NCBI GenBank assembly: GCA_035573595.1
Contig: DATMZP010000605.1
Location: forward strand, 1-27,475
DNA from: Hyphomicrobiaceae bacterium
Lineage (GTDB): Bacteria; Pseudomonadota; Alphaproteobacteria; Rhizobiales; Hyphomicrobiaceae
Direction: 5' to 3'
Length of the DNA: 27,475 nt
The notes under the pieces were generated by a model, which worked only from the letters and a program-made list of their open reading frames with translations, ran no database searches and was not told where the DNA came from. Positions 11,804 through 27,475 of this stretch are shown piece after piece. The position numbers and the translations under genes are program-made. The first letter of the stretch is position 1. The number at the start of each line of letters is the position of its first letter.

Positions 11804-14704
11804 ATGCTGGTGAAGAGGGCCGAAGGCCAAGCTCGACGCCGGGCATCCGTCTCGGCGCTCGCGGCAGGCTCCGCTGCAGAGCTCGATCGCCGCGGCTTCC
11901 TGCGTCGCTCAGGCCTCGCCGTAGGCGGGCTTGCTGCCCTGGGTGTCCTGCCGCTCACCGCTATCCGCAAGAGCGCTGCCGGTCCCCCGCCCCCTCCCGG
12001 CGCGCAGGTGATAGTCCGCAAGAACGTTTGCACCCATTGCTCTGTAGGTTGCACCGTCATGGCCGAGGTGGCCAACGGCGTCTGGCTCGGCCAGGAGCCG
12101 GGCTGGGACAGCCCGATCAACCGCGGCTCGCACTGCGCCAAGGGCGCGGCGGTCCGCGACGATGTGCACAGCGACCGCCGGCTGCGCTATCCGATGAAGC
12201 TGGTGAACGGCAACTGGAACCGCGTCTCGTGGGACCAGGCGATCGATGAGATCGGCGACAAGCTCATGGAGATCCGCGCCAAGTCCGGACCGGATTCGGT
12301 CTACTGGCTGGGCTCGGCCAAGTTCACCAACGAGGCCGCCTACCTCAACCGCAAGCTCGCCGCCTTCTGGGGCACGAACAACTCGGACCATCAGGCGCGC
12401 ATCTGCCACTCCACCACGGTCGCCGGCGTAGCCAACACCTGGGGCTACGGGGCCATGACCAACAGCTACAACGACATCCGCAATTCCAAGACCATCATGG
12501 TCATGGGCGGCAATCCCGCCGTGGCGCACCCGGTTTCGCTGCAGCATGTGCTGGAGGGCAAGGAGCTCAACCGCGCCAACATGATCGTCATAGACCCGCG
12601 CATGACGCGCACTGCGGCGCACGCCACCGAGTACGTGCGCGTGCGCCCCGGCACGCACATCCCCACGATCTACGGCATGCTCTGGCACATCTTCCGCAAC
12701 GGCTGGGAGGACAAGGAGTTCATCCGCCAGCGCGTCTACGGGCTCGACGACGTCAAGAAGGAGGTCGAGAAGTGGCCGCCCGACGAGGTCGAGCGGGTCA
12801 CCGGCCTGCCCGAGGCGCAGGTCAGGCGCATCGCCGAGACGTTCGCTAAGCAGCGTCCCTCGACCCTGATCTGGGCTATGGGACAAACTCAGTTCACTGT
12901 CGGGACAGCAAACGTGCGCGCCAGCTGCATCCTGGTGCTGGCCACCGGCAATGTCGGCCGTTTGGGCGGCGGCGCGAATATTTTCCGAGGCCACGACAAC
13001 GTCCAGGGCGCCACCGACCTGGGGCTCGATATCGTGACGCTGCCGCTCTACTACGGGCTCGAGGAGGGCGCGTGGCGGCACTGGTGCCGCGTATGGGAGG
13101 TCGACTACGACTGGATGGCCTCCCGCTTCGCCGACAAGAAGCTGATGGGGACGCCAGGCATCCCGTCGACGCGCTGGTTCGATGCCACGCTGCTGCCGAA
13201 GGACCAGGTTAGCCAGCCCGACAACGTCAAGGCCATGTTCGTCATGGGTCATGGCGGCAACACCATCACGCGCATGCCAGAAGCGGCCAAGGGGATCGAA
13301 AACCTGGCCCTGCTGGTCGTGTGCGATCCTTATCCGACAACCTGGGCCGTGCTCTCGCAGCGCAAGGACGGCACCTATCTTCTGCCGGCCTGCACCAGCT
13401 TCGAGATGAGCGGCTCACGCACCGCGTCCAACCGCTCGCTGCAATGGGGTGAGCAGGTCGTCAAGCCGATCTTCGAATGCAAGAACGACTACGACACCAT
13501 GTACCTGCTCGCGCGCAAGCTCGGCTTCGCGGATCGGATGTTCAAGAGCATCAAGGTCGAGAACGGCGCCGTCTCGGCCGAGGACATCCTGCGCGAGATC
13601 AATCGCGGCGGATGGTCCACAGGCTACTGCGGCCAGTCGCCGGAGCGGCTGAAGCTGCATATGGCCAATCAGAAGGACTTCGACATCAAGACGCTGAGGG
13701 CCACCGACGGGCCTTGCAAGGGCGACATCTACGGCCTGCCGTGGCCATGTTGGGGCACACCGGAATTCAGGCATCCAGGCACGCCCGTGCTCTACAACAC
13801 CGAGCTGCCGATCAAGGAGGGCGGCGGCACGTTCCGCCCGCGCTTCGGCGTCGAGCGCAACGGCGTCAGCCTGCTGGCCGACGGCTCCTATTCCAAGAAC
13901 TCGGCGATCCAGGACGGCTATCCCGAGTTCACCCTGGCCGTGCTCAAGAAGCTCGGATGGGACAAGGACCTCAGCGCGGCGGAGATGGCGGCCATCGAGC
14001 GAGTGAATCCCGCAAATCCCGACGCGGTGTCGTGGTCCACCGATCTCTCCGGCGGCATCCAACGCGTCGCCATCGAGCACGGCTGCTCGCCCTATGGCAA
14101 CGGCAAGGCGCGCATGATCGCCTGGAACCTGCCCGACCCCGTTCCGGTGCATCGCGAGCCGATCTACACCCCGAGGCCCGACCTTGTCGCCAAATATCCG
14201 ACGCGGCCTGACGCCCGCGAGTTCAGGGTGCCCAATATCGGCTTCACGGTGCAGAAGTCGGCCGTCGACAGGGCAGTCTCCAAGGAGTTCCCGCTGATCC
14301 TTTCCTCCGGGCGGCTCGTCGAGCACGAGGGCGGCGGCGAGGAGACGCGCTCCAACAAGTGGCTGGCGGAGCTGCGCCAGGAAATGTTCGTCGAGATCAA
14401 CCCCGCCGATGCAGCCGAGCGCGGCATCACGGACGGCGCCTGGGTATGGGTCACAGGCCCCGAGAGCAACTCCAAGGCGCGGATGAAGGCGCTGGTGACA
14501 CAGCGTGTCGGCAAGGGGCTGGTGTGGTCGCCGTTCCACTTCGCCGGCTGGTTCGAGGGCGTCGACCAGCGCAGCAAGTACCCCAAGGGCAACGACCCCA
14601 TCGTGCTGGGTGAGAGCGTCAACACGCTCACCACTTACGGCTTCGATCCGGTGACGGGCATGCAGGAGCCGAAAGCCACCCTCTGTCAGGTCCGCGCAGC
14701 GTGA
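11804..14704 (+). CDS. fdhA: Formate dehydrogenase alpha (Mo/W-bisPGD catalytic) subunit, Tat-exported, Cys ligand
   Basis: Tat motif DRRGFLRRS, CTHCSVGC...C 4Fe-4S motif, DHQARICHSTT (Cys, TGC codon), RGHDNVQGA.D, C-terminal SGRLVEH...VEINP.DA. GAGG RBS before ATG 11804. Confidence 0.95.
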   Translation: MLVKRAEGQARRRASVSALAAGSAAELDRRGFLRRSGLAVGGLAALGVLPLTAIRKSAAGPPPPPGAQVIVRKNVCTHCSVGCTVMAEVANGVWLGQEPGWDSPINRGSHCAKGAAVRDDVHSDRRLRYPMKLVNGNWNRVSWDQAIDEIGDKLMEIRAKSGPDSVYWLGSAKFTNEAAYLNRKLAAFWGTNNSDHQARICHSTTVAGVANTWGYGAMTNSYNDIRNSKTIMVMGGNPAVAHPVSLQHVLEGKELNRANMIVIDPRMTRTAAHATEYVRVRPGTHIPTIYGMLWHIFRNGWEDKEFIRQRVYGLDDVKKEVEKWPPDEVERVTGLPEAQVRRIAETFAKQRPSTLIWAMGQTQFTVGTANVRASCILVLATGNVGRLGGGANIFRGHDNVQGATDLGLDIVTLPLYYGLEEGAWRHWCRVWEVDYDWMASRFADKKLMGTPGIPSTRWFDATLLPKDQVSQPDNVKAMFVMGHGGNTITRMPEAAKGIENLALLVVCDPYPTTWAVLSQRKDGTYLLPACTSFEMSGSRTASNRSLQWGEQVVKPIFECKNDYDTMYLLARKLGFADRMFKSIKVENGAVSAEDILREINRGGWSTGYCGQSPERLKLHMANQKDFDIKTLRATDGPCKGDIYGLPWPCWGTPEFRHPGTPVLYNTELPIKEGGGTFRPRFGVERNGVSLLADGSYSKNSAIQDGYPEFTLAVLKKLGWDKDLSAAEMAAIERVNPANPDAVSWSTDLSGGIQRVAIEHGCSPYGNGKARMIAWNLPDPVPVHREPIYTPRPDLVAKYPTRPDAREFRVPNIGFTVQKSAVDRAVSKEFPLILSSGRLVEHEGGGEETRSNKWLAELRQEMFVEINPADAAERGITDGAWVWVTGPESNSKARMKALVTQRVGKGLVWSPFHFAGWFEGVDQRSKYPKGNDPIVLGESVNTLTTYGFDPVTGMQEPKATLCQVRAA

Positions 14705-14729
14705 AGAGGCTCAAGCGAGGAGATGGGCC

Positions 14730-15326
14730 ATGGCGCGCATGAAGTTCCTCTGCGATGCCGAGCGCTGCATCGAGTGCAACGCTTGCGTCACCGCCTGCAA
14801 GAACGAGAACGAGGTACCCTGGGGCATCAACCGCCGGCGCGTCGTCACCATCAACGACGGCAAGCCCGGCGAGCGCTCGGTCTCGATGGCCTGCATGCAC
14901 TGCACCGACCCGCCCTGCGCCGCCGTGTGTCCCGTCGACTGCTTCTACGTGACGGCGGATTCCGTGGTTCTGCACTCCAAGGATCTGTGCATCGGCTGCG
15001 GCTACTGCTTCTACGCCTGTCCGTTCGGGGCCCCACAATATCCCATGGTGGGTAACTTCGGCTCGCGCGGCAAGATGGACAAGTGCACCTACTGCGCCGG
15101 TGGCCCGGAGGCGGACGGGACCATGGCGGAGTTCGAGAAATACGGCGCCAACCGTCTGGCCGAGGGCAAGCTGCCGCTGTGCGCCGAGATATGCTCCACC
15201 AAGTCGCTGCTGGCCGGCGACGGGGAGATCATCGCCCAGATCTACAAGGAGCGCGTCGTCAAGCGCGGCTACGGCTCCGGTGCGTGGGGCTGGATGACAG
15301 CCTACCGCGCGGAGATCGACGTGTAA
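14730..15326 (+). CDS. fdhB: Formate dehydrogenase iron-sulfur (beta) subunit
   Basis: CIECNACVTAC, CMHCTDPPCAAVCP, CIGCGYCFYACP and KCTYC...C 4Fe-4S motifs. Confidence 0.95.
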   Translation: MARMKFLCDAERCIECNACVTACKNENEVPWGINRRRVVTINDGKPGERSVSMACMHCTDPPCAAVCPVDCFYVTADSVVLHSKDLCIGCGYCFYACPFGAPQYPMVGNFGSRGKMDKCTYCAGGPEADGTMAEFEKYGANRLAEGKLPLCAEICSTKSLLAGDGEIIAQIYKERVVKRGYGSGAWGWMTAYRAEIDV

Positions 15327-15382
15327 GGCAGCACGGCGGCGCTGAACCCGATGGATCGTTCACCACTGCGGAGCATGAGCCG

Positions 15383-16411
15383 ATGGCACCCGGGGAAGCG
15401 ACTCGCCTGTCGAGATACATTCGCCTGGCCGCCTATGGGGTCCTGATCCTCGCGATCTTCGCCGTCTCCCCCCCAGTCCGCGCGCAGCAAGACCGGATCA
15501 TCGACCCTGCCGCCAGCGCCGTGAACGAGCAGATGCTGCTCAAGCAGGCACCGCGCATCGAAGGGCGCACCGTGCTCGTCAGCGAGCGGGCCGGTGTCTT
15601 GATGCAGCCTGCAGGAAGGACCTGGCGCTACTTTCACGAGGTGGTTCTGCGCTGGACGGGTGCGATCGTCATTCTCGGCACGGCCCTCGGCCTATGGCTC
15701 GCCTACGCCCTGATCGGACGGCTGCGCATGACCGCGGGGCGATCGGGGATCATGGTTCCCCGCTTCGACGCATTCGAGCGCTTCACCCACTGGATGACCG
15801 CCGCGTCCTTCGTCCTGCTGGCGCTCACCGGGCTCAACGTCACGTTCGGGAAGGTCCTGCTGCTGCCCTTGATCGGTCCAGAGGCGTTCACTGCGCTTTC
15901 AGAGGCAGCCAAGTATGTTCACAACTTCGTCAGTTTCCCGTTCGTGCTCGGGCTCATTCTCATGGCAGCGCTCTGGCTGAGAGACAACGTTCCGCGCCGG
16001 GTGGACATCGACTGGCTGAAGCAGGGCGGCGGCTTCATCAAGTCTCGGCATCCGGCGGCCGGCCGCTTCAATGCCGGCGAGAAGCTGGTGTTCTGGCTGG
16101 CTCTCGCCGCCGGCGCGGCCGTCGCGATCTCCGGCTATATTTTGATGTTCCCCTTCTACGTGACGAACATCCTCGGCATGCAAGGTGCCCAGGTCGTGCA
16201 CAGCGTCATTGCGATGCTGTTCATCGCTCTCATCCTGGGGCACATCTACATTGGCACGCTGGGGACGGAGGGTGCCTTCGAGGCCATGGGAACGGGCAGC
16301 GTCGATCTCAACTGGGCCAGGGACCATCACGCGCTCTGGCTCCAGGAGGAGATTGCCAAGGGGCACGTGACGGGCCCGACCCCAGGGTCGTCGGCAAGAC
16401 CGGCTGAGTGA
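15383..16411 (+). CDS. fdhC: Formate dehydrogenase gamma subunit (cytochrome b)
   Basis: RF..FERFTHW, HNF, GRFNAGEKL.FW, HS...GHIYIGT.G.EGA..AM.TG.VD.NWA..HH..W. Start set at ATG 15383 after GGAG. Confidence 0.92.
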   Translation: MAPGEATRLSRYIRLAAYGVLILAIFAVSPPVRAQQDRIIDPAASAVNEQMLLKQAPRIEGRTVLVSERAGVLMQPAGRTWRYFHEVVLRWTGAIVILGTALGLWLAYALIGRLRMTAGRSGIMVPRFDAFERFTHWMTAASFVLLALTGLNVTFGKVLLLPLIGPEAFTALSEAAKYVHNFVSFPFVLGLILMAALWLRDNVPRRVDIDWLKQGGGFIKSRHPAAGRFNAGEKLVFWLALAAGAAVAISGYILMFPFYVTNILGMQGAQVVHSVIAMLFIALILGHIYIGTLGTEGAFEAMGTGSVDLNWARDHHALWLQEEIAKGHVTGPTPGSSARPAE

Positions 16412-16849
16412 GATCGACCACCCTCTGCGGGCGGAGGCGGCTGCCGATATATGAGCCGCCAGCCCGCCGCCCAGCACCGTAGCGATGACGAGGAGTGTGC
16501 GCGTATCGTGCGGGATGCTACGCGCTCGCGTTGCAGCTCTCGCCGCGGCGGCGGCGATCGGGGCGAAGGCACGGGGGGACTTTCTCAGTCTGGCCCTGGC
16601 TTGCGGCAAACCTGAAGGCTGAAGGCCGGCGGCTGCCGCTGCTGACCGCCCCCGCTGAGGTATGACATCCCGGCAGGCCTCCACGCTGCGCCCTGGAGCG
16701 CCGGATCGCACGATAAACCAAACTTCCATGTTAGCCGCCGCCGGGTCGCCGAGCCCGCCACACTCATATGGCCATTGTGCCTGCAACAGTCGGGCACGCG
16801 TCAGCCAGCGCGTCGCCGCACTGCTCGCACCGCCGCATCGACGTGTATC

Positions 16850-19054
16850 ATGCAGCTTAAGCTCAAGCCCCATCCCTACGGCTTTTCCACCTCCCAGATC
16901 CTGCCTCTGATCGCAGGCGCCATCGGCGTCGGCATCTTCCTGGTCGATACTTTCACCACGCTCGATTTCGCGATCGCGGTTTTGTACGTCGTGGTCATCC
17001 TCGCGGCCGCCAACTTCCTGCGACGGCGCGGCATCCTCATGGTTGGCGCTCTCTGCGCTGCTCTGACCGTGTTCGGCTATCTGGTGTCGCATGGCCTCAG
17101 TTTCGATACGGCCCTGTTGCGTTGCCTGGTGAGCCTGCTCGCCATCGCCATTGCCACCCTCCTGGCCCTACGCAACCAGGAGGCCACAGCGGCGCTCGTC
17201 GGTCAGGCCCGCCTCCTCGAACTCACCCACGACGCGATCTTCGTGCGCAACATGGACGACGTCGTCACCTACTGGAACCGCGGCGCGGAGGAGCTGTACG
17301 GCTGGGAGGCGGACGAGGCGCTCGGCAAGGTCTCTCACCAGCTGCTGCAAACGAACTCTGCGGAGCCCCTCGATCAGATCCTTGCGACGGTTACCAGCAC
17401 GGGCCGTTGGGAAGGGGAGTTCGTCCAATTGAGGCGCGATGGCACGCAGGTGACCGTTGCAAGCAGGTGGTCCTTGCAGACCGGCGAGCGGGGGCAGCCT
17501 GTTGCCGTCTTGGAGAGCAACACCGACATCACGGAGCAGCAACGGGCACAGCAGGAGATCCGCCGTGCAGGCCGCAATCTCCAGGCGACCATCGATACCA
17601 TTCCGGCCGTTGTCGCGAGCTATCTGCCCGACGGAACGCGCGACTTCGCCAATCGCACCTGGCAGGAATACGCCGGCACCTCCCGCGAAGACGCAAGACA
17701 CATCGATTGGCCCACGATCGTCCATCCGGACGATGTCGAAGCGGCGCAGAATATGTGGTCCGACTGCCTCGCTTCCGGTCGGCCGTTCCAGATGGAGGTC
17801 CGATTTCTGCGCGCCGACGGCGAATACCGCTGGCACCTCGTCCGGCGCGTGCCGCTGCGCGACGAGCAAGGCGAGGTGGTCAAATGGTACAGTGCAGGCT
17901 TCGACATCGAGGATCAGAAACGCGCCGAAGCCGCGCTTCGGCGTACCGAGGCGCATTCAGCCGAGGCTCAGCGGCTGAGCCAGACAGGCAGCTTCGGCTG
18001 GAGGATCGACGATGGGAAGACGATATGGTCGAAGCAGACCTATCGGATCCTCGGCTACGACCAGACGGTGAAGCCGTCGGTGGCATTGGTCCTCGCTCGC
18101 GTTCACCCCGACGACCTGCCGATTGTGCAACGCCACCTCGACCGCATGAAGCAAGGCGAGCGGACCTTCGACTTCGAGTACCGCTTGCTGATGCCGGACG
18201 GGCGGGTCAAGGAGCTGCACGTTCGCGCCCACCGCGTGACGCTTGGTACCGGCGCAGGTGCAGAGGAGGTTGTCGGCGCCGTGATGGACATCACCGAAGC
18301 CAAGCGTGCACAGGAGGCGCTGGAGACGGCTCAGACCGAGCTTGCGCACGCGACCCGCGTGACGACGCTGGGAGAAATGACGGCTTCGATCGCGCACGAG
18401 GTGAACCAGCCGCTCGCGGGCATTGTCACCAATGGGGAAGTGGGCCTGCGCTGGCTCGCCCGCAGCGTCCCGCAAGTCGAGGTCGAGGAGGCGAGCCGGG
18501 CCATCGAGCGCATCCTCCGCGATGCGGATCGGGCCAGCGGCGTCGTCCGCCGAATTCGCGCTCTGGCCAAGAAGGCCGCCCCGGAGATGACGCGGCTCGA
18601 CATCAACGACGTCATCAACGACGCCATGCTGCTGGTGCAGCGCGAGGTGCTCGGCCATCGGGTTGCACTGCGGCTGGAGCTGGCGTCCGGGCTTCCCGCG
18701 GTTGTGGGAGATCGAGTCCAGCTCCAGCAGGTCATCATCAACCTGGTGATGAACGGCATCGAAGCCATGGCCGGGGTGAGCGAGCAGCGGCGACGGCTCG
18801 CGGTCCGTTCCCAGCTCGGCGAGGGCCAGGTGCTCGTTGCCGTGCAGGATGCCGGCACTGGGATCGACCCGCAGAATGCCAACCGTCTCTTCAGCGCGTT
18901 CTACACCACGAAATCCAACGGCATGGGCATGGGATTGTCGATCTCCCGCTCCATCGTCGAGGCGCACGGGGGCCGCATCCGAGCCACCAACAACGACGGC
19001 CCCGGCGCTACCATCGAGTTCACCGTGCCGTTCGCGGAGGACAGCCGGGCGTAG
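16850..19054 (+). CDS. Membrane-bound multi-PAS sensor histidine kinase (NodV/FixL-like)
   Basis: N-terminal TM bundle, three PAS/PAC repeats, intact H-box SIAHEVNQPL, N-box QVIINLVMNGIEAM, G1 DAGTG, F-box LFSAFYTTK, G2 GMGMGL. Start approximate (ATG 16850). Confidence 0.93.
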   Translation: MQLKLKPHPYGFSTSQILPLIAGAIGVGIFLVDTFTTLDFAIAVLYVVVILAAANFLRRRGILMVGALCAALTVFGYLVSHGLSFDTALLRCLVSLLAIAIATLLALRNQEATAALVGQARLLELTHDAIFVRNMDDVVTYWNRGAEELYGWEADEALGKVSHQLLQTNSAEPLDQILATVTSTGRWEGEFVQLRRDGTQVTVASRWSLQTGERGQPVAVLESNTDITEQQRAQQEIRRAGRNLQATIDTIPAVVASYLPDGTRDFANRTWQEYAGTSREDARHIDWPTIVHPDDVEAAQNMWSDCLASGRPFQMEVRFLRADGEYRWHLVRRVPLRDEQGEVVKWYSAGFDIEDQKRAEAALRRTEAHSAEAQRLSQTGSFGWRIDDGKTIWSKQTYRILGYDQTVKPSVALVLARVHPDDLPIVQRHLDRMKQGERTFDFEYRLLMPDGRVKELHVRAHRVTLGTGAGAEEVVGAVMDITEAKRAQEALETAQTELAHATRVTTLGEMTASIAHEVNQPLAGIVTNGEVGLRWLARSVPQVEVEEASRAIERILRDADRASGVVRRIRALAKKAAPEMTRLDINDVINDAMLLVQREVLGHRVALRLELASGLPAVVGDRVQLQQVIINLVMNGIEAMAGVSEQRRRLAVRSQLGEGQVLVAVQDAGTGIDPQNANRLFSAFYTTKSNGMGMGLSISRSIVEAHGGRIRATNNDGPGATIEFTVPFAEDSRA

Positions 19055-19276
19055 GGTCTCCGATTGCCTTGGTGCTGCCATTCGCAAAAGGGGGCTCCGG
19101 CCAACCCAAGGCGCAAGCCTGGCCCGAAGCGCGTACTCGGTCGCAATCCTGACGGTTTGGCGCAAGATCGCGTCAGCCGGAGCAATTGCACCCAAGCGTG
19201 GCCGCACGGAGAGCCCCATATGAGCCGGGCCTGGACGCAAGAGCCCGGGCATCAAGCACAACCAAGGACAATGATC

Positions 19277-19504
19277 ATGACAACCATCATCAAGGCCATC
19301 ATGTCCGGAATGACGGCCGCCACCGTTTTTGCCGTTATTGGCACGTCCGCCAGCGCGGCCTTCAGCCCCAAGGACCTCGGGAATCTGACGCCGACCGTTC
19401 AGGCGGCGCAACAGCTCGACAAGTCCCAGGCGGTACAGCCGGCGGTCTGGAGCGACCAGGATCAACAGAAGTTCTGGGCGGAGGAAGGGGATCGCGGAGG
19501 CTGA
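19277..19504 (+). CDS. Small secreted protein (about 75 aa)
   Basis: MTTIIKAIMSGMTAATVFAVIGTSASA|AFSPKDL...WSDQDQQKFWAEEGDRGG. AAGGA RBS and an A-x-A signal peptidase site. ATG 19271 is an alternative start. Confidence 0.6.
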   Translation: MTTIIKAIMSGMTAATVFAVIGTSASAAFSPKDLGNLTPTVQAAQQLDKSQAVQPAVWSDQDQQKFWAEEGDRGG

Positions 19505-19509
19505 AGGCC

Positions 19510-19698
19510 ATGACGTAATGGGACAACACGAGGCTCGGTTGGCTGGTCCTGGCGGCTCTTGCCGCCTTGACGACCGCGATGGCTCCGCCCGCCGCGCAGG
19601 CTGATCCGGTGCAGGCCCCAATGGCGGCGGGGGTCGGCCTGGCGGCCCCCGCCACGCAGCGGGGCTTCGGCCGGACCGGCAGCATTGGGCGGCCTTGA
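19510..19698 (+). pseudogene. Second small secreted-protein gene, interrupted by TAA at codon 3
   Basis: ATG ACG TAA TGG... reads MT*WDNTRLGWLVLAALAALTTAMAPPAAQA|DPVQAPMAAG...GRP*. GGAGG lies 9 nt upstream, and the frame after the stop is a clean signal peptide. Confidence 0.5.
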
Positions 19699-19738
19699 CC
19701 GGGAACGGCCGACTGAGACCGGGAACGGCCGACTGAGA
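19697..19738. repeat. 20-bp perfect tandem duplication
   Basis: GACCGGGAACGGCCGACTGA twice, plus GA. Confidence 0.9.
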
Positions 19739-19946
19739 GGCCAGCGCAGCTTGCGCTGCGGACGGCACAGGGCCTTACAAATCACGATCGCTCGGCGGCG
19801 CGGCGTTCGCGCGCGCCGCGTTCCCGCATTTCCCTCGGGGTTTTACCCGATGGCGATCTCTTCTCTTGCCGACAACATTCCACCCCATTGGGGCTTCTCC
19901 CGGAAGATGGGCGACCGGGGCCAGCAAAGCCCTCCGGGGATTGCCA

Positions 19947-24103: not shown

Positions 24104-24201
24104 ACTCGCCTCTCCAGCTCCCCGCCCTCGCTGCGGCTTCGGAGCATAAGGGGTCAGCCCGCTCGCCCCTGGCCTCGATTTTCAGCTCAACGTCTGAGGC
24201 G

Positions 24202-24216
24202 AGGGGTCTGACCCCT
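24202..24216. repeat. Short palindrome sharing the core of the REP-like family
   Basis: AGGGGTC-T-GACCCCT contains the GGGTCTGAC core of the larger repeats. Confidence 0.5.
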
Positions 24217-24254
24217 TCTGGGGAGCGTAGTGCTGGCGCATGTGGACGGCAAGC

Positions 24255-24280
24255 GGCCCGTGGAAGGCCCGTGGAAGGCC
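24255..24280. repeat. 11-bp tandem duplication
   Basis: GGCCCGTGGAA twice, plus GGCC. Confidence 0.85.
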
Positions 24281-24368
24281 GGAGCTCCGGCTTTCAGCTT
24301 CCTCCGGGCGCAGCAGCGACGGCGTCCTCGCGAGGGGTCCTGCAGAGCGGCATCCGTCGATCGGCTAG

Positions 24369-24998
24369 TCAGCTCTTCGCTTTGGAGATTTGTCCGTCTG
24401 CGAAAATCGTGGCCTCCAATCGATTGCGAACGCCGAGCTTCCGAAACGCGAGGGACTTGTAGTGTTTGATCGTGCTAACAGTCAGACCCAGCAAGCTCGC
24501 AATCTCCTTGTTGGTCAGCCCCCTTGACGTGTGGTCCATGACCTGGCGCTCGCGAAGGCTCAACTGCTCGCTGCTCCTGGGCGGTTCCGACCTGGTGATC
24601 AAGCGGCATGCCAGCTCCGAGGTGATAGAGCGCTTGCCATTGTGGACCGCCACGATCGCCCTGATCAGCTCGGCCGCGCTGACACCCTTCATAAGGTAGC
24701 CCTGAGCGCCGTCGCGCAATGCCTGAGTGGCATGCACCTCATCCTCCACCGACGCAAGGAACACAATCTTCACGCGCTTGCGCGTTGCCAAGATCGACCT
24801 GACGGCTCGCAGGCTATCACGCACGGCAGCTTCGATGAGCAGGACGTCCAGCTGGCCGCCGGCCACTCGCTCCGCGTCTTCTACCGTGGTACCCTCTCCA
24901 ACGACGAGACAACGCTTGTCCCGACGCAGCGCTTGCGCCACCCCTTCGCGGAAAATGGGGTAAATGTCCACAATTGCGACCCGAATCTTGTCAGTCAC
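24369..24998 (-). CDS. NarL/LuxR-family response regulator with an atypical receiver (phospho-Asp replaced by Glu)
   Basis: REC: VAIVDIYPIFREGV, LDVLLIEAA, IVFLASV, GYLMKGVS. HTH: LSLRERQVMDHTSRGLTNKEIASLLGLTVSTIKHYKSLAFRKLGVRNRLEA. GTG start overlaps the kinase stop. Confidence 0.9.
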   Translation of the reverse strand: MTDKIRVAIVDIYPIFREGVAQALRRDKRCLVVGEGTTVEDAERVAGGQLDVLLIEAAVRDSLRAVRSILATRKRVKIVFLASVEDEVHATQALRDGAQGYLMKGVSAAELIRAIVAVHNGKRSITSELACRLITRSEPPRSSEQLSLRERQVMDHTSRGLTNKEIASLLGLTVSTIKHYKSLAFRKLGVRNRLEATIFADGQISKAKS

Positions 24999-26409
24999 GA
25001 GCCAGCTCCACGTCGGCCAAATTGAGCTCGGCGACGATCGTCATTCCGCCATCGTGCGTCGGCGCGAGCTCCAGCGCCCCACCCAGGGCTTCTATCCGGT
25101 TACGCAGGCCTTCGAGCGCGGGGCAGCTGAAGAGCCGTTGGGCATCTGGGTGCAAGGTACCGCGCCCACCGGCGATCCTCAAGGTCAGGGACTGATCCTC
25201 TGCGGACGCGCTTACGCTTTGCACCAACGCCGGGTAGGTGCTGCCGAGCCCCTCTAGCGTGAAGCGATAGAGCGCCGTCTTCAGCGGGAACGGTAGCTGG
25301 TCCGGCAGTCCATGGCTCTCCAGCTTGACGTTCACGCCCGTCAGACGCTCATGATGCGCCGCGGCTCTGTCGAGAGTGTCCCGCAGAGAAAGGCATTCGA
25401 TATCAGTCGGGGGAAAGCCGCCGTAAATGCCACGGATGTGCTGGAGGGTCGCGTTCAATGCCTCTCGGATTGTCGTCAAGTCCTCTTTGTAGCCGTCGAC
25501 GGAAATGGGGGCAACCGAGTTGGCCCTGGTAGCGAGTTCCTCCAGCGCCTCGAATTTCAACAATGCCAGCGCAATGTACTGCCCTGGCCCTTCGTTCAAT
25601 CCGGTTCCCATGCTCCGCAAACATCGCTCGTTCATCGCACAGACTTGGAGGTTCGCTTCACTGACCCTCTTGCGGCGTCGTTCGCTCTCCCCCATGCGGT
25701 CGAGAAGAAAGCTGCGTTCGACCTCGCCCGAGCCGACCAGGATGAACAACAGTATGACGATCGTCAGGGTAGTGGCCAGAACGGCTAACCAAGCAGAGAG
25801 CTGATGGACCAAGACCTCATGCTTCAACTCGACTCCGATCTCGTAGGTTTCGGCCAAAGCGATGATGCGATTGGTGCCCCCTTGGCGTACCGGTGCGTAC
25901 ACTTCGAGCACCGGCACCTTTAGCGACCGCACCTGTTCATCGTCATCGCCGTCCGGCTGCTCGAATTCAAGGGCAACCTGACCCCGCAGCGCAAGCTCAC
26001 GCGCAGCGGTGCGCGCAAACGTCCGGCCAATAAGGTCGCGCTCGTTGCTGAAGACCACGGTATCGCCCTTCCAGATGCGAAAAGCGATAACCGGCCTATG
26101 CATGGAGGCTGGCGACAAAAGCCCATCGAGGGCCAACCGGTTCTCGTCGGAAATGGTGGACTTGCTCTCAAGCTCCTGTACGTGCCGTTCGACAAAATTG
26201 CTCATGTAAAGAGCCGCTGCCGACGCATGCTTTTGCAGCACGTTTTCCCTGGCGTGCCCGGCTACGACCATACCGAGATACGTCATGGCGGCAACGACCA
26301 ACCCCGACGCGCCGACCGCGGCCTTCAATGGAAGGGGCAGCCCCCGCCACCAGGTCGCAAGCTGCGAGGCGTTCAGCACGGAAGCTCGGTAAAACCAGGT
26401 CAGGGCCAT
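24991..26409 (-). CDS. Two-TM sensor histidine kinase homolog (HisKA_3/HATPase layout) with a degenerate catalytic core
   Basis: TM-periplasmic domain-TM architecture, then GLNEGPGQ where LHDG is expected, YRFTLEGLGS where N-box QE.LNN is expected, and a C-terminal GLRNRIEALGG.L...GG.TI. Full-length open frame. Confidence 0.85.
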   Translation of the reverse strand: MALTWFYRASVLNASQLATWWRGLPLPLKAAVGASGLVVAAMTYLGMVVAGHARENVLQKHASAAALYMSNFVERHVQELESKSTISDENRLALDGLLSPASMHRPVIAFRIWKGDTVVFSNERDLIGRTFARTAARELALRGQVALEFEQPDGDDDEQVRSLKVPVLEVYAPVRQGGTNRIIALAETYEIGVELKHEVLVHQLSAWLAVLATTLTIVILLFILVGSGEVERSFLLDRMGESERRRKRVSEANLQVCAMNERCLRSMGTGLNEGPGQYIALALLKFEALEELATRANSVAPISVDGYKEDLTTIREALNATLQHIRGIYGGFPPTDIECLSLRDTLDRAAAHHERLTGVNVKLESHGLPDQLPFPLKTALYRFTLEGLGSTYPALVQSVSASAEDQSLTLRIAGGRGTLHPDAQRLFSCPALEGLRNRIEALGGALELAPTHDGGMTIVAELNLADVELARD

Positions 26410-26647
26410 GGCTATTGTTTACTCGGTTCTCCGCCGGCGCCTATACAGAGCAAGGTCGCACAGATGATTGGGACCAACGCACAATAGAGTACGAAACGGA
26501 CCGATAGACCAAGAGACGACCGATTGTCGTGCCCCGGTCTCTCGCTTGCATGCGGACCCCCGCTCTAGGATCGGCTCCGGCAAATCGTGTTGCTGCACAC
26601 GCCAGCTTTGCCTCTCGGGGCACTGGTTGGAGCGAACGGGGGATGAA

Positions 26648-27475
26648 ATGGTCACCTTCATTAGATCCGATCTCGAGTTCATTCTCAACCAGATCCTGAT
26701 CGCCGAGAGCGGCGGTATCGACGGCTCCAATCTTGTAAACGTCCTGCCCAACGTGCAAGTGCCTTGGGGGCTGCGCACGGTCGACGGGTCGTACAATAAC
26801 CTGGTCTTCATCGACAATTCCACGGTGAGCATCGACCAGACCCAGTTCGGAGCGGCCGACACGGTCTTCCCGCGCCTCTTGACCCCGGTATTCCGCCCGG
26901 CGGACCTCGGTACGTCCTACGCGCAGACCTCGGGAACGGTCGTCGACGCGCAACCGCGCATCATCTCGAACCTGATTGTCGATCAGACAGCGAATAATCC
27001 AGCGGCGGTGGCGGCTGCGGCGGGGAACGACGGGGCTGCGACGGTTTTCAGTCCGGGGCTCGACGGCGTTTTCGGAACGGCCGACGACAGCCCGGTCTTC
27101 TACATCCCCAACGTGAAACCCGACTTCGGCCTGACCGTGCCGTTCAACGCCTGGTTCACGTTCTTCGGGCAGTTCTTCGATCACGGACTCGATCTTGTCA
27201 CCAAAGGTGGGCAGGACATCATCTTCGTTCCGCTGCAGCCCGACGATCCGCTGTTCGAGCCGGGCTCGCCGACCAATTTCATGGTCGAGACGCGCGCGAC
27301 CAACATTGCCGTTCATCCCGGGCCCGACGGCGTGCTCGGCACGGCCGACGACATCCACGACAACGAGAACACCACCACGCCGTTCGTGGACCAGAACCAG
27401 ACGTACACATCTCACCCCTCGCACCAGGTGTTCCTGCGCGCCTACCAGCTGATGCTGGTGGACCCGGACGGGATC
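26648..27475 (+). CDS. Bacterial heme peroxidase (peroxidase-cyclooxygenase / animal heme peroxidase family), N-terminal part, runs off the window end
   Basis: Open frame from ATG 26648 to the window end: MVTFIRSDLEFILNQILIAE...VPWGLRTVDGSYNNL...FGAADTVFPRL...QPRIISNLIVDQ...FTFFGQFFDHGLDL...TPFVDQNQTYTSHPSHQVFLRAY. GQ..DH is the distal motif of this superfamily. Missing from the ORF track because no stop falls in the window. Confidence 0.88.
   Translation, partial: MVTFIRSDLEFILNQILIAESGGIDGSNLVNVLPNVQVPWGLRTVDGSYNNLVFIDNSTVSIDQTQFGAADTVFPRLLTPVFRPADLGTSYAQTSGTVVDAQPRIISNLIVDQTANNPAAVAAAAGNDGAATVFSPGLDGVFGTADDSPVFYIPNVKPDFGLTVPFNAWFTFFGQFFDHGLDLVTKGGQDIIFVPLQPDDPLFEPGSPTNFMVETRATNIAVHPGPDGVLGTADDIHDNENTTTPFVDQNQTYTSHPSHQVFLRAYQLMLVDPDGI

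Follow-up and report, generated by a model that had tools for sequence, protein, structure and literature searches.

A co-degenerate histidine kinase-like protein and response regulator of Hyphomicrobiaceae, maintained by selection, that may signal without phosphate

We analysed a stretch of DNA of 27,475 nucleotides (contig DATMZP010000605.1, hereafter the window) from a metagenome-assembled genome of a Hyphomicrobiaceae bacterium (4.07 Mb, 789 contigs, 73% complete), and found on its minus strand a gene pair in which both a sensor histidine kinase-like protein (472 amino acids, 24991..26409) and a NarL/FixJ-type response regulator (209 amino acids, GTG start, 24369..24998) have had residues of the phosphotransfer reaction replaced. 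The catalytic residues at issue are required for ATP binding, autophosphorylation and phosphotransfer. A preliminary description of the locus had read both frames as full length, and they are intact at these coordinates. The kinase stop overlaps the regulator start by 8 nt (GTGACTGA, 24991..24998), an arrangement that recurs in loci L055-L063 of the clade described below and suggests translational coupling. We consider it probable that this pair is a working sensor-regulator system, descended from a two-component system of the HisKA_3/NarL type, that transfers no phosphate and signals by contact.

The substitution at the phospho-acceptor site of the kinase-like protein is confirmed. The codons of the H-box, GGA TTG AAC GAA GGG CCA GGG CAG, encode G-L-N-E-G-P-G-Q, and a profile of 77 family members aligns the Asn272 encoded by AAC (25594..25596, read from 25596 to 25594) with His188 of DesK (LHDTLGQ), so that the Asn seen at this codon in the preliminary description indeed occupies the acceptor position. 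In 38 of 38 canonical relatives this position is His (LHDGP). Asn272 is followed by E273 and by the invariant Q277 of the DxxxQ motif. Alignment to the canonical relatives also bore out the erosion of the ATP-binding boxes. The N-box reads EGLGSTYP where canonical proteins have EGLxNAFRHAxG, the Asn having become Ser390 next to a four-residue deletion; the G1 box reads IAGGRGT where they have xxDxGPG, with Gly414 for Asp and with Arg416 and Thr418 at the other positions of the DxGxG motif; and the G2 box reads CPALEGL where they have GxGLxGL, with PALE for GxGL and the glycines gone. A Pfam scan gave only a sub-threshold match to HisKA_3 (13.8 bits against a cut-off of 24, a weak match over residues 276-335) and found no HATPase_c in the protein. 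As judged from its residues, the protein is predicted to carry out neither autophosphorylation nor phosphotransfer.

We looked for a substitute acceptor, and found no alternative His or Asp that aligns in the catalytic positions. The only other His residues conserved in the clade are H353 and H324. H353 was rejected because it is conserved in canonical kinases too, and H324, clade-specific and present in 49% of members, was rejected because it shows no association with loss of H272. Residue 324 (25438-25440, DHp helix 2) has a history of its own: it is Glu in 36 of 38 canonical relatives, as part of an E-I-R motif, and in the degenerate clade (n=113) it is His in 55, Gln in 24, Asp in 14 and Glu in 12; the window has His.

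The fold of a sensor kinase has been retained. An AlphaFold model of the kinase-like protein (pLDDT 83.8) contains a first transmembrane helix, a periplasmic PDC/PAS-like domain, a second transmembrane helix, a DHp hairpin and an alpha/beta CA domain. Foldseek searches with this model returned DesKC and the CA domain of VraS (TM 0.75), with the RetS-GacS complex among the matches, and the family profile likewise matches DesK and VraS. The profile was needed to reach DesK, since a phmmer search of PDB sequences with the kinase-like protein alone gave nothing meaningful (best NifU at E 0.8). NCBIfam offered no named equivalog, only far sub-threshold matches (MctS at 28.5 bits against a cut-off of 700; NarL/MadR at about 90 bits against cut-offs of 250-300). 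The HisKA_3-derived DHp hairpin (about residues 255-335, 25405..25647), placed by the weak HisKA_3 match and the DesK profile alignment, holds the regulator-docking helix QYIALALLKFEAL, and the HATPase_c-derived CA domain (25021..25386) has kept its fold and lost its motifs. Between the two transmembrane helices lies an extracytoplasmic single PDC/sCache-like sensor domain (about residues 55-192, 25834..26247); folded alone it reached a pLDDT of 86.5 and matched the sensor domains of WalK, CitA and DcuS (TM 0.6-0.68). No other part of the protein is as well conserved; its ratio of non-synonymous to synonymous substitution (dN/dS) is 0.13-0.14. The kinase-like protein is thus a descendant of a HisKA_3 sensor histidine kinase, with DHp hairpin and alpha/beta CA fold kept, and its clade is nested in canonical kinases.

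The regulator consists of a receiver fold (Response_reg, 36.1 bits) and a C-terminal GerE/LuxR helix-turn-helix (HTH) of the NarL/FixJ type, the GerE match being full length with E 4.8e-15; it aligns over its full length with VraR and DevR. Aligned to the solved structures of VraR, DevR and ChrA, the regulator has D11-I12 at the acidic DD pair and E56 (LLIEAAV; codon GAA, 24831..24833) at the acceptor Asp, with A82 at the site of the switch Thr and K104 at that of the Lys. Of the five catalytic residues, three are therefore replaced (Ile12, Glu56 and Ala82), and D11 and Lys104 are kept, just as first described. In the 29 closest regulator clusters (at least 46% identity) the acceptor position is Glu in 27 and Gly in 2. 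With this set of residues the protein belongs to the class of pseudo-receiver, or atypical, response regulators (PMC12632262).

Both genes are maintained by purifying selection and are not decaying. Nei-Gojobori estimates of dN/dS between orthologous pairs were 0.17-0.26 for the kinase-like protein and 0.12-0.30 for the regulator. Measured domain by domain against an orthologue of 85% identity, they were 0.13 for the sensor, 0.16 for DHp, 0.14 for the degenerate CA domain (range 0.14-0.25), 0.20 for the pseudo-receiver and 0.16 for the HTH; sensor and HTH are the best conserved parts, in agreement with the earlier description of both as intact. The same residues are carried by orthologues of 72-85% identity, and the degenerate state persists in relatives down to about 36-40% identity. 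A sequencing error at the key codons could be checked directly: an independent soil-metagenome contig of 3043 nt spans 24300-26700 with six differences, none of them in either codon. DNA nearly identical to 24300-26700 was also present in at least 14 rhizosphere or soil metagenome runs; uncovered parts in X1, X15 and X17 carry no meaning. Contigs from metatranscriptome libraries cover 24944-25176, 25474-25713, 26298-26507 and 26478-26700, that is, parts of both genes and of the intergenic region. This cover is only a hint of expression, as DNA carry-over into such libraries is possible.

The degenerate kinases form a single clade. Searches with the kinase-like protein found 141 homologues at E<=0.001 in 90% clusters, and in 50% representatives 1786 at E<=0.001 and 329 at E<=1e-30. 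Degenerate proteins make up about 20 of the 133 best full-length 50% representatives. The degenerate clade comprises about 110 sequence clusters, mostly from Hyphomicrobiaceae, and the family occurs in other Alphaproteobacteria too. A maximum-likelihood tree of 152 sequences placed every one of the 113 tips that had lost the ATP motifs under one node nested in canonical kinases (three of the 113 matched a loose N-box pattern, yet had neither G1 nor G2). Support was 0.73 for the degenerate clade and 1.0 for the node that joins it to the nearest canonical clade, whose motifs are intact. Within the degenerate clade the acceptor position has become variable: His, Arg, Gln, Tyr, Asn, Cys, Ser, Val, Asp and Gly all occur there (Tyr in 18 tips), and parsimony requires at least 23 changes at this position, including at least 11 switches between His and non-His. 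Residues around it have been held. Of 110 members, 108 keep the Gln at His+5 (Q277) and about 90 keep Gly-Pro, and 59 have an acidic residue (D or E) at His+1. The docking-helix residues L281, A282, L284 and K285 are kept in 102-109 of 110, more tightly than in canonical relatives. Given a single clade, a variable His position and near-invariant docking residues, the ATP-site motifs were lost once, after which the phospho-acceptor was released from selection and the surface that meets the regulator was not. The window pair belongs to an old radiation in which loss of the ATP site came first, and His, Asp and Thr were lost stepwise afterwards.

The losses are matched between partners. In 50 distinct loci a NarL-type regulator follows every family kinase, and the pair is never broken. 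All 24 canonical kinases pair with regulators that have the full DD-D-T-K set, and all 26 degenerate kinases pair with regulators that do not have the second acidic-pocket Asp. Among these 26 regulators the acceptor residue is Glu in 17, Gly in one and Asp in eight. Replacement of Thr by Ala or Ser is confined to the crown clade that contains the window, and regulators of the basal degenerate subclades keep Asp, Thr and Lys. The preliminary description had preferred a maintained pseudokinase and atypical regulator to neutral decay on the strength of this one locus. Its sequence-level statements all held, and recurrence in a large clade at dN/dS of about 0.2, with loss matched locus by locus, upholds that preference. 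A second module lies in the genome of the window itself (locus L002, contig C21, 1-3066), where a peroxidase gene is followed by a kinase 51% identical to that of the window, with the H-box His kept and all ATP motifs lost, and then by a DK/Glu/Ala regulator. Related genomes carry up to six copies of the family kinase, canonical ones among them.

On the basis of these results we propose that the sensor protein, which has kept its periplasmic PDC-type sensor, its regulator-docking hairpin and the fold of its ATP domain, would be unable to bind or use ATP, because the N, G1 and G2 motifs are gone, and would bind the receiver domain directly. A periplasmic signal would decide whether the regulator is held at the membrane, or is pushed allosterically into or out of its DNA-binding form, and Glu56 would supply a fixed phosphate-like charge. 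The regulator may then act at the promoter region that the operon shares with a divergent RTX heme peroxidase gene (candidate site 26454-26475), on its own operon and probably also on the peroxidase gene. In this scheme the kinase-like protein, judged by its residue losses together with purifying selection, would have its place in signalling as a pseudo-histidine kinase in the sense of Collins and Childers, quoted in PMC12632262. A complex prediction with a dimer of kinase residues 245-472 and regulator residues 1-128 scored 0.48, against 0.00 for the best of three controls, and weakly supports such a contact. Of 80 solved complexes 58 reached the mark applied, as did 2 of 110 mismatched pairs, and passes at or below 0.60 comprised only 7 of those 80 together with both passing mismatches. 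The runs agreed in at least 91% of contacts, with partner pLDDT of at least 83. For coupling from kinase to regulator without phosphorylation (HK-ACAM, PMC12033271), this weak prediction joins two other pieces of indirect evidence, the conservation of the docking helix and the matching of the partners. For the clade as a whole, we see roughly even chances that it represents a naturally evolved, ATP-free 'two-component' system, in which a transmembrane pseudokinase passes a periplasmic signal to a pseudo-regulator carrying Glu through conformational coupling or sequestration alone. On that reading its intermediates would survive in living relatives, as the canonical pair, pairs that have lost the ATP site and one pocket Asp, pairs that have lost His and Asp, and pairs that have lost Thr.

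The candidate target lies directly upstream of the operon. The 5' part of a giant gene of the peroxidase-cyclooxygenase superfamily (26648..27475, plus strand, ATG at 26648) runs off the contig; the part present gives an An_peroxidase match at E 1.8e-07. Its orthologue in L055 codes for a protein of 3149 amino acids with an An_peroxidase match at E 1e-114 and RTX repeats (HemolysinCabind); by the heme peroxidase domain and the RTX repeats of this orthologue, the divergent gene can be assigned to the MopA-type RTX heme peroxidases. Divergent peroxidase genes adjoin the kinase gene in 10 of 26 degenerate loci and in 4 of the 24 canonical ones, those of Alsobacter and Devosia among them; occurring in part of both sets, the association is old but not obligatory. 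Elsewhere (L025, 3864-13342) a Tyr-type member of the family is flanked by RTX calcium-binding proteins and an HlyB/HlyD-like type I secretion pair. This placement suggests a general link of the family to RTX or type I secreted cargo, not to peroxidases alone.

The 238-bp intergenic region shared by the two divergent units (26410..26647) is 87% identical to that of L055 and best conserved in its kinase-proximal half; dS between the same loci is 0.36-0.45. Within it we found an inverted repeat, GGTCGCACAGATGATTGGGACC (GGTC-N14-GACC, 26454..26475), upstream of both genes (45-66 nt from the kinase ATG, 173 nt from the peroxidase ATG), which we regard as a candidate operator. This palindrome emerged solely from comparison across loci. 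The pattern GGTC-N13/14-GACC, 45-103 nt upstream of the kinase start, is present in 6 of 11 crown-clade loci (the window, L055, L056, L058, L059 and L002, the second module of the same genome, where it is of the same type), and three of the six have saturated synonymous sites relative to the window. The background was 2.2% per shuffled sequence, and among 52 other family loci the pattern occurred once, which is the chance level. A family-wide operator role was rejected, as the palindrome was not found upstream of the Arg-, Tyr- and DP-type subclades or of canonical relatives, and two distant short inverted repeats returned by a generic repeat search of the intergenic region were judged to be chance. 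A scan of 24200-26700 for consensus sigma-70 promoters and intrinsic terminators found none. The conserved palindrome in the shared intergenic region is what leads us to think that the regulator probably controls the divergent peroxidase gene.

Several points weigh against this interpretation. Binding of the sensor protein to the regulator, and of the regulator to the palindrome, are both steps that we infer. Because a DesK-DesR complex has already been solved, the pass in complex prediction may reflect likeness and not binding. A Glu is not a phosphomimic in all regulators (PMC12632262), and the window regulator has Ala in place of the switch Thr with which such a Glu would normally interact. 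His is kept by about a quarter of the degenerate clade, and Asp by 8 of 26 partner regulators; with these residues some members of the clade could still join phosphoryl chemistry with other kinases or small donors. The peroxidase is absent at 16 of 26 degenerate loci, one orthologue of 80% identity adjoins an RND pump and another relative adjoins nitrate-assimilation genes, so the target of the regulator may lie elsewhere. Of the 11 crown-clade loci, 5 do not have the palindrome, among them those of an Arg-type subclade that has the peroxidase.

Three other explanations can be weighed against contact-based signalling by the pair. It is possible, but in our view unlikely, that the regulator is constitutively active, owing to Glu56 or to the surrounding sequence, and is set solely by its own expression level, with the pseudokinase uncoupled from it and serving another role such as modulating canonical paralogous kinases by heterodimerisation. 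RetS, which modulates GacS, and DivL, which modulates CckA, are precedents for that kind of action. The presence of the RetS-GacS complex among the Foldseek matches fits such a role, and with up to six kinase paralogues in a genome of the genus, some of them canonical, heterodimers are conceivable; moreover, 18 of 20 characterised bacterial atypical regulators are orphans (PMC12632262). However, the pair is unbroken in all 50 distinct loci with its 8-nt overlap kept, loss states are matched partner by partner, and the docking helix is better conserved in the degenerate clade than in canonical relatives, none of which would be expected if the two proteins did not interact.

Cryptic phosphoryl chemistry seems to us still less probable, at about the level of an outside chance. 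Here phosphate would reach the system through another residue or another enzyme (a canonical paralogous kinase, a Ser/Thr kinase or a small-molecule donor), or the DHp domain would serve as a phosphatase or scaffold through its E/D-x-x-x-Q motif. This would account for the near-universal retention of Q277 of the HisKA_3 DxxxQ phosphatase motif and for the acidic residue at His+1 in somewhat over half of the clade, and the HisKA_3 His is not needed for phosphatase activity according to literature summarised in PMC12632262. The Asp, Thr and Lys of basal-subclade regulators, and the clade-specific H324 in DHp helix 2, point the same way. Yet H324 is not enriched where H272 has been lost, and no ATP-binding motif is left to load any His. 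In the window pair and the whole crown clade, moreover, the regulators have neither the acceptor Asp nor the second pocket Asp nor the switch Thr, which leaves a phosphatase nothing to act on.

Early neutral decay of a canonical system, or an error of sequencing or assembly at these codons, can be set aside as having almost no probability: decay does occur in the family, given its split-frame copies elsewhere, and the window comes from a fragmented assembly, but a dN/dS of about 0.2 in all domains of both genes with intact frames, a single-clade tree, residues shared with orthologues and distant relatives, a kinase protein cluster of 36 member sequences and an independent contig unchanged at both codons rule against it, and so dispose of the alternative that the preliminary description had left standing. 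The split copies are at L011, L016, L021, L033, L047 and L054, where the kinase homologue is divided into two or three frames by true decay or by long-read frameshift errors; the window copy is intact by contrast.

The phosphate-free signalling that we favour for the pair has a laboratory counterpart in DesK/DesR of Bacillus subtilis, which belong to the same two protein families. The H188Q variant of DesK cannot be phosphorylated, yet activates DesR-dependent expression, and with it the Des pathway, in vivo, a result termed 'allosteric coupling activation' (PMC12033271). The position changed in that variant is the one to which Asn272 aligns, and the Gln used is one of the commonest natural replacements in the degenerate clade. 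Unlike the window proteins, DesK is a genuine kinase whose ATP site is intact and DesR retains its acceptor Asp, so that the phosphate-free route there is a side-path opened in the laboratory, whereas in the window pair the chemistry has been lost naturally and permanently in both partners. The sensors differ as well, that of DesK responding to membrane thickness and that of the window protein being a periplasmic PDC domain. DivL of Caulobacter crescentus is a histidine-kinase descendant under selection that has Tyr for His and whose DHp/CA region binds a receiver without phosphorylating it (PMC4211667); Tyr is a recurrent replacement in the degenerate clade too. DivL, however, is a HisKA-type cytoplasmic PAS protein that binds DivK, a canonical phosphorylated single-domain regulator, and controls CckA, whereas the window kinase is of the HisKA_3 type, has lost all ATP motifs and is paired in an operon with a DNA-binding pseudo-regulator.

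BldM/WhiI, VpsT and CsgD belong among the pseudo-receiver regulators with LuxR output. Like these aspartate-less proteins, the window regulator has a receiver without catalytic residues fused to a GerE/LuxR HTH (PMC12632262, PMC4395418), and its substitutions, Glu for the acceptor Asp and Ala for the Thr, are those reported most often for pseudo-receivers (PMC12632262). Where nearly all of the characterised examples are orphans, it has a dedicated, co-evolving and translationally coupled sensor that is itself a pseudoenzyme. A 2025 minireview called the control of pseudo-receiver regulators a mystery, again noting that nearly all studied examples are orphans, and counted His-less HisKA_3 domains as rare, at 56 of 16,025 or 0.3% (PMC12632262). 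Pseudo-histidine kinases such as DivL and pseudo-receiver regulators are known kinds of protein. A literature search, limited in extent and so no proof of absence, turned up no account of a co-degenerate HisKA_3/NarL pair encoded in one operon, or of its clade. As for the putative target, MopA is described as a secreted Mn(II)-oxidising enzyme, and regulation of mopA in Pseudomonas involves FleQ and possibly MnxS1S2R, not a HisKA_3/NarL-type pair (PMC13689576). The likeness of the window peroxidase to the MopA-type enzymes of Aurantimonas, Erythrobacter and Pseudomonas putida GB-1 is one of domain content.

If our interpretation is correct, the pair would be a natural counterpart of the DesK H188Q result, and its regulator the first of the pseudo-receiver type to have an upstream sensor of its own; in soil Hyphomicrobiaceae the system might govern secreted RTX heme peroxidases. 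The locus supplies a pseudo-receiver regulator with a cognate, operon-encoded sensor, and the family supplies a graded natural series of paralogues and orthologues, some within the same genomes, that differ in the catalytic residues they still have. With such a series one can test whether a signal passes from a histidine-kinase scaffold to its partner when neither ATP nor phosphate is involved (a claim made from mutants of DesK and EnvZ), which surfaces carry the signal, and in what order catalytic residues are released once phosphotransfer ends. The locus may also point to how giant RTX heme peroxidases, an enzyme type implicated in bacterial Mn(II) oxidation, are regulated in Hyphomicrobiaceae. 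This family includes classical manganese-depositing bacteria.

Some further observations concern the surroundings of the pair. A long minus-strand frame at 26441-27475 and other long antisense frames over the peroxidase and neighbouring genes are shadow open reading frames of the kind typical of high-G+C DNA; they match no family, and the locus can be explained without them. Farther away, 11909-19768 holds four long minus-strand open reading frames (447, 374, 397 and 603 amino acids) with no Pfam match at E 1e-5, whose neighbours include an ankyrin-repeat protein and an RND pump. The G+C content is 0.60-0.61 in 25000-27475, against 0.65-0.75 over most of the window. Several family loci (L058, L062 and L064) have transposase or recombinase genes beside them, and the kinase/regulator module may be able to move between genomes.

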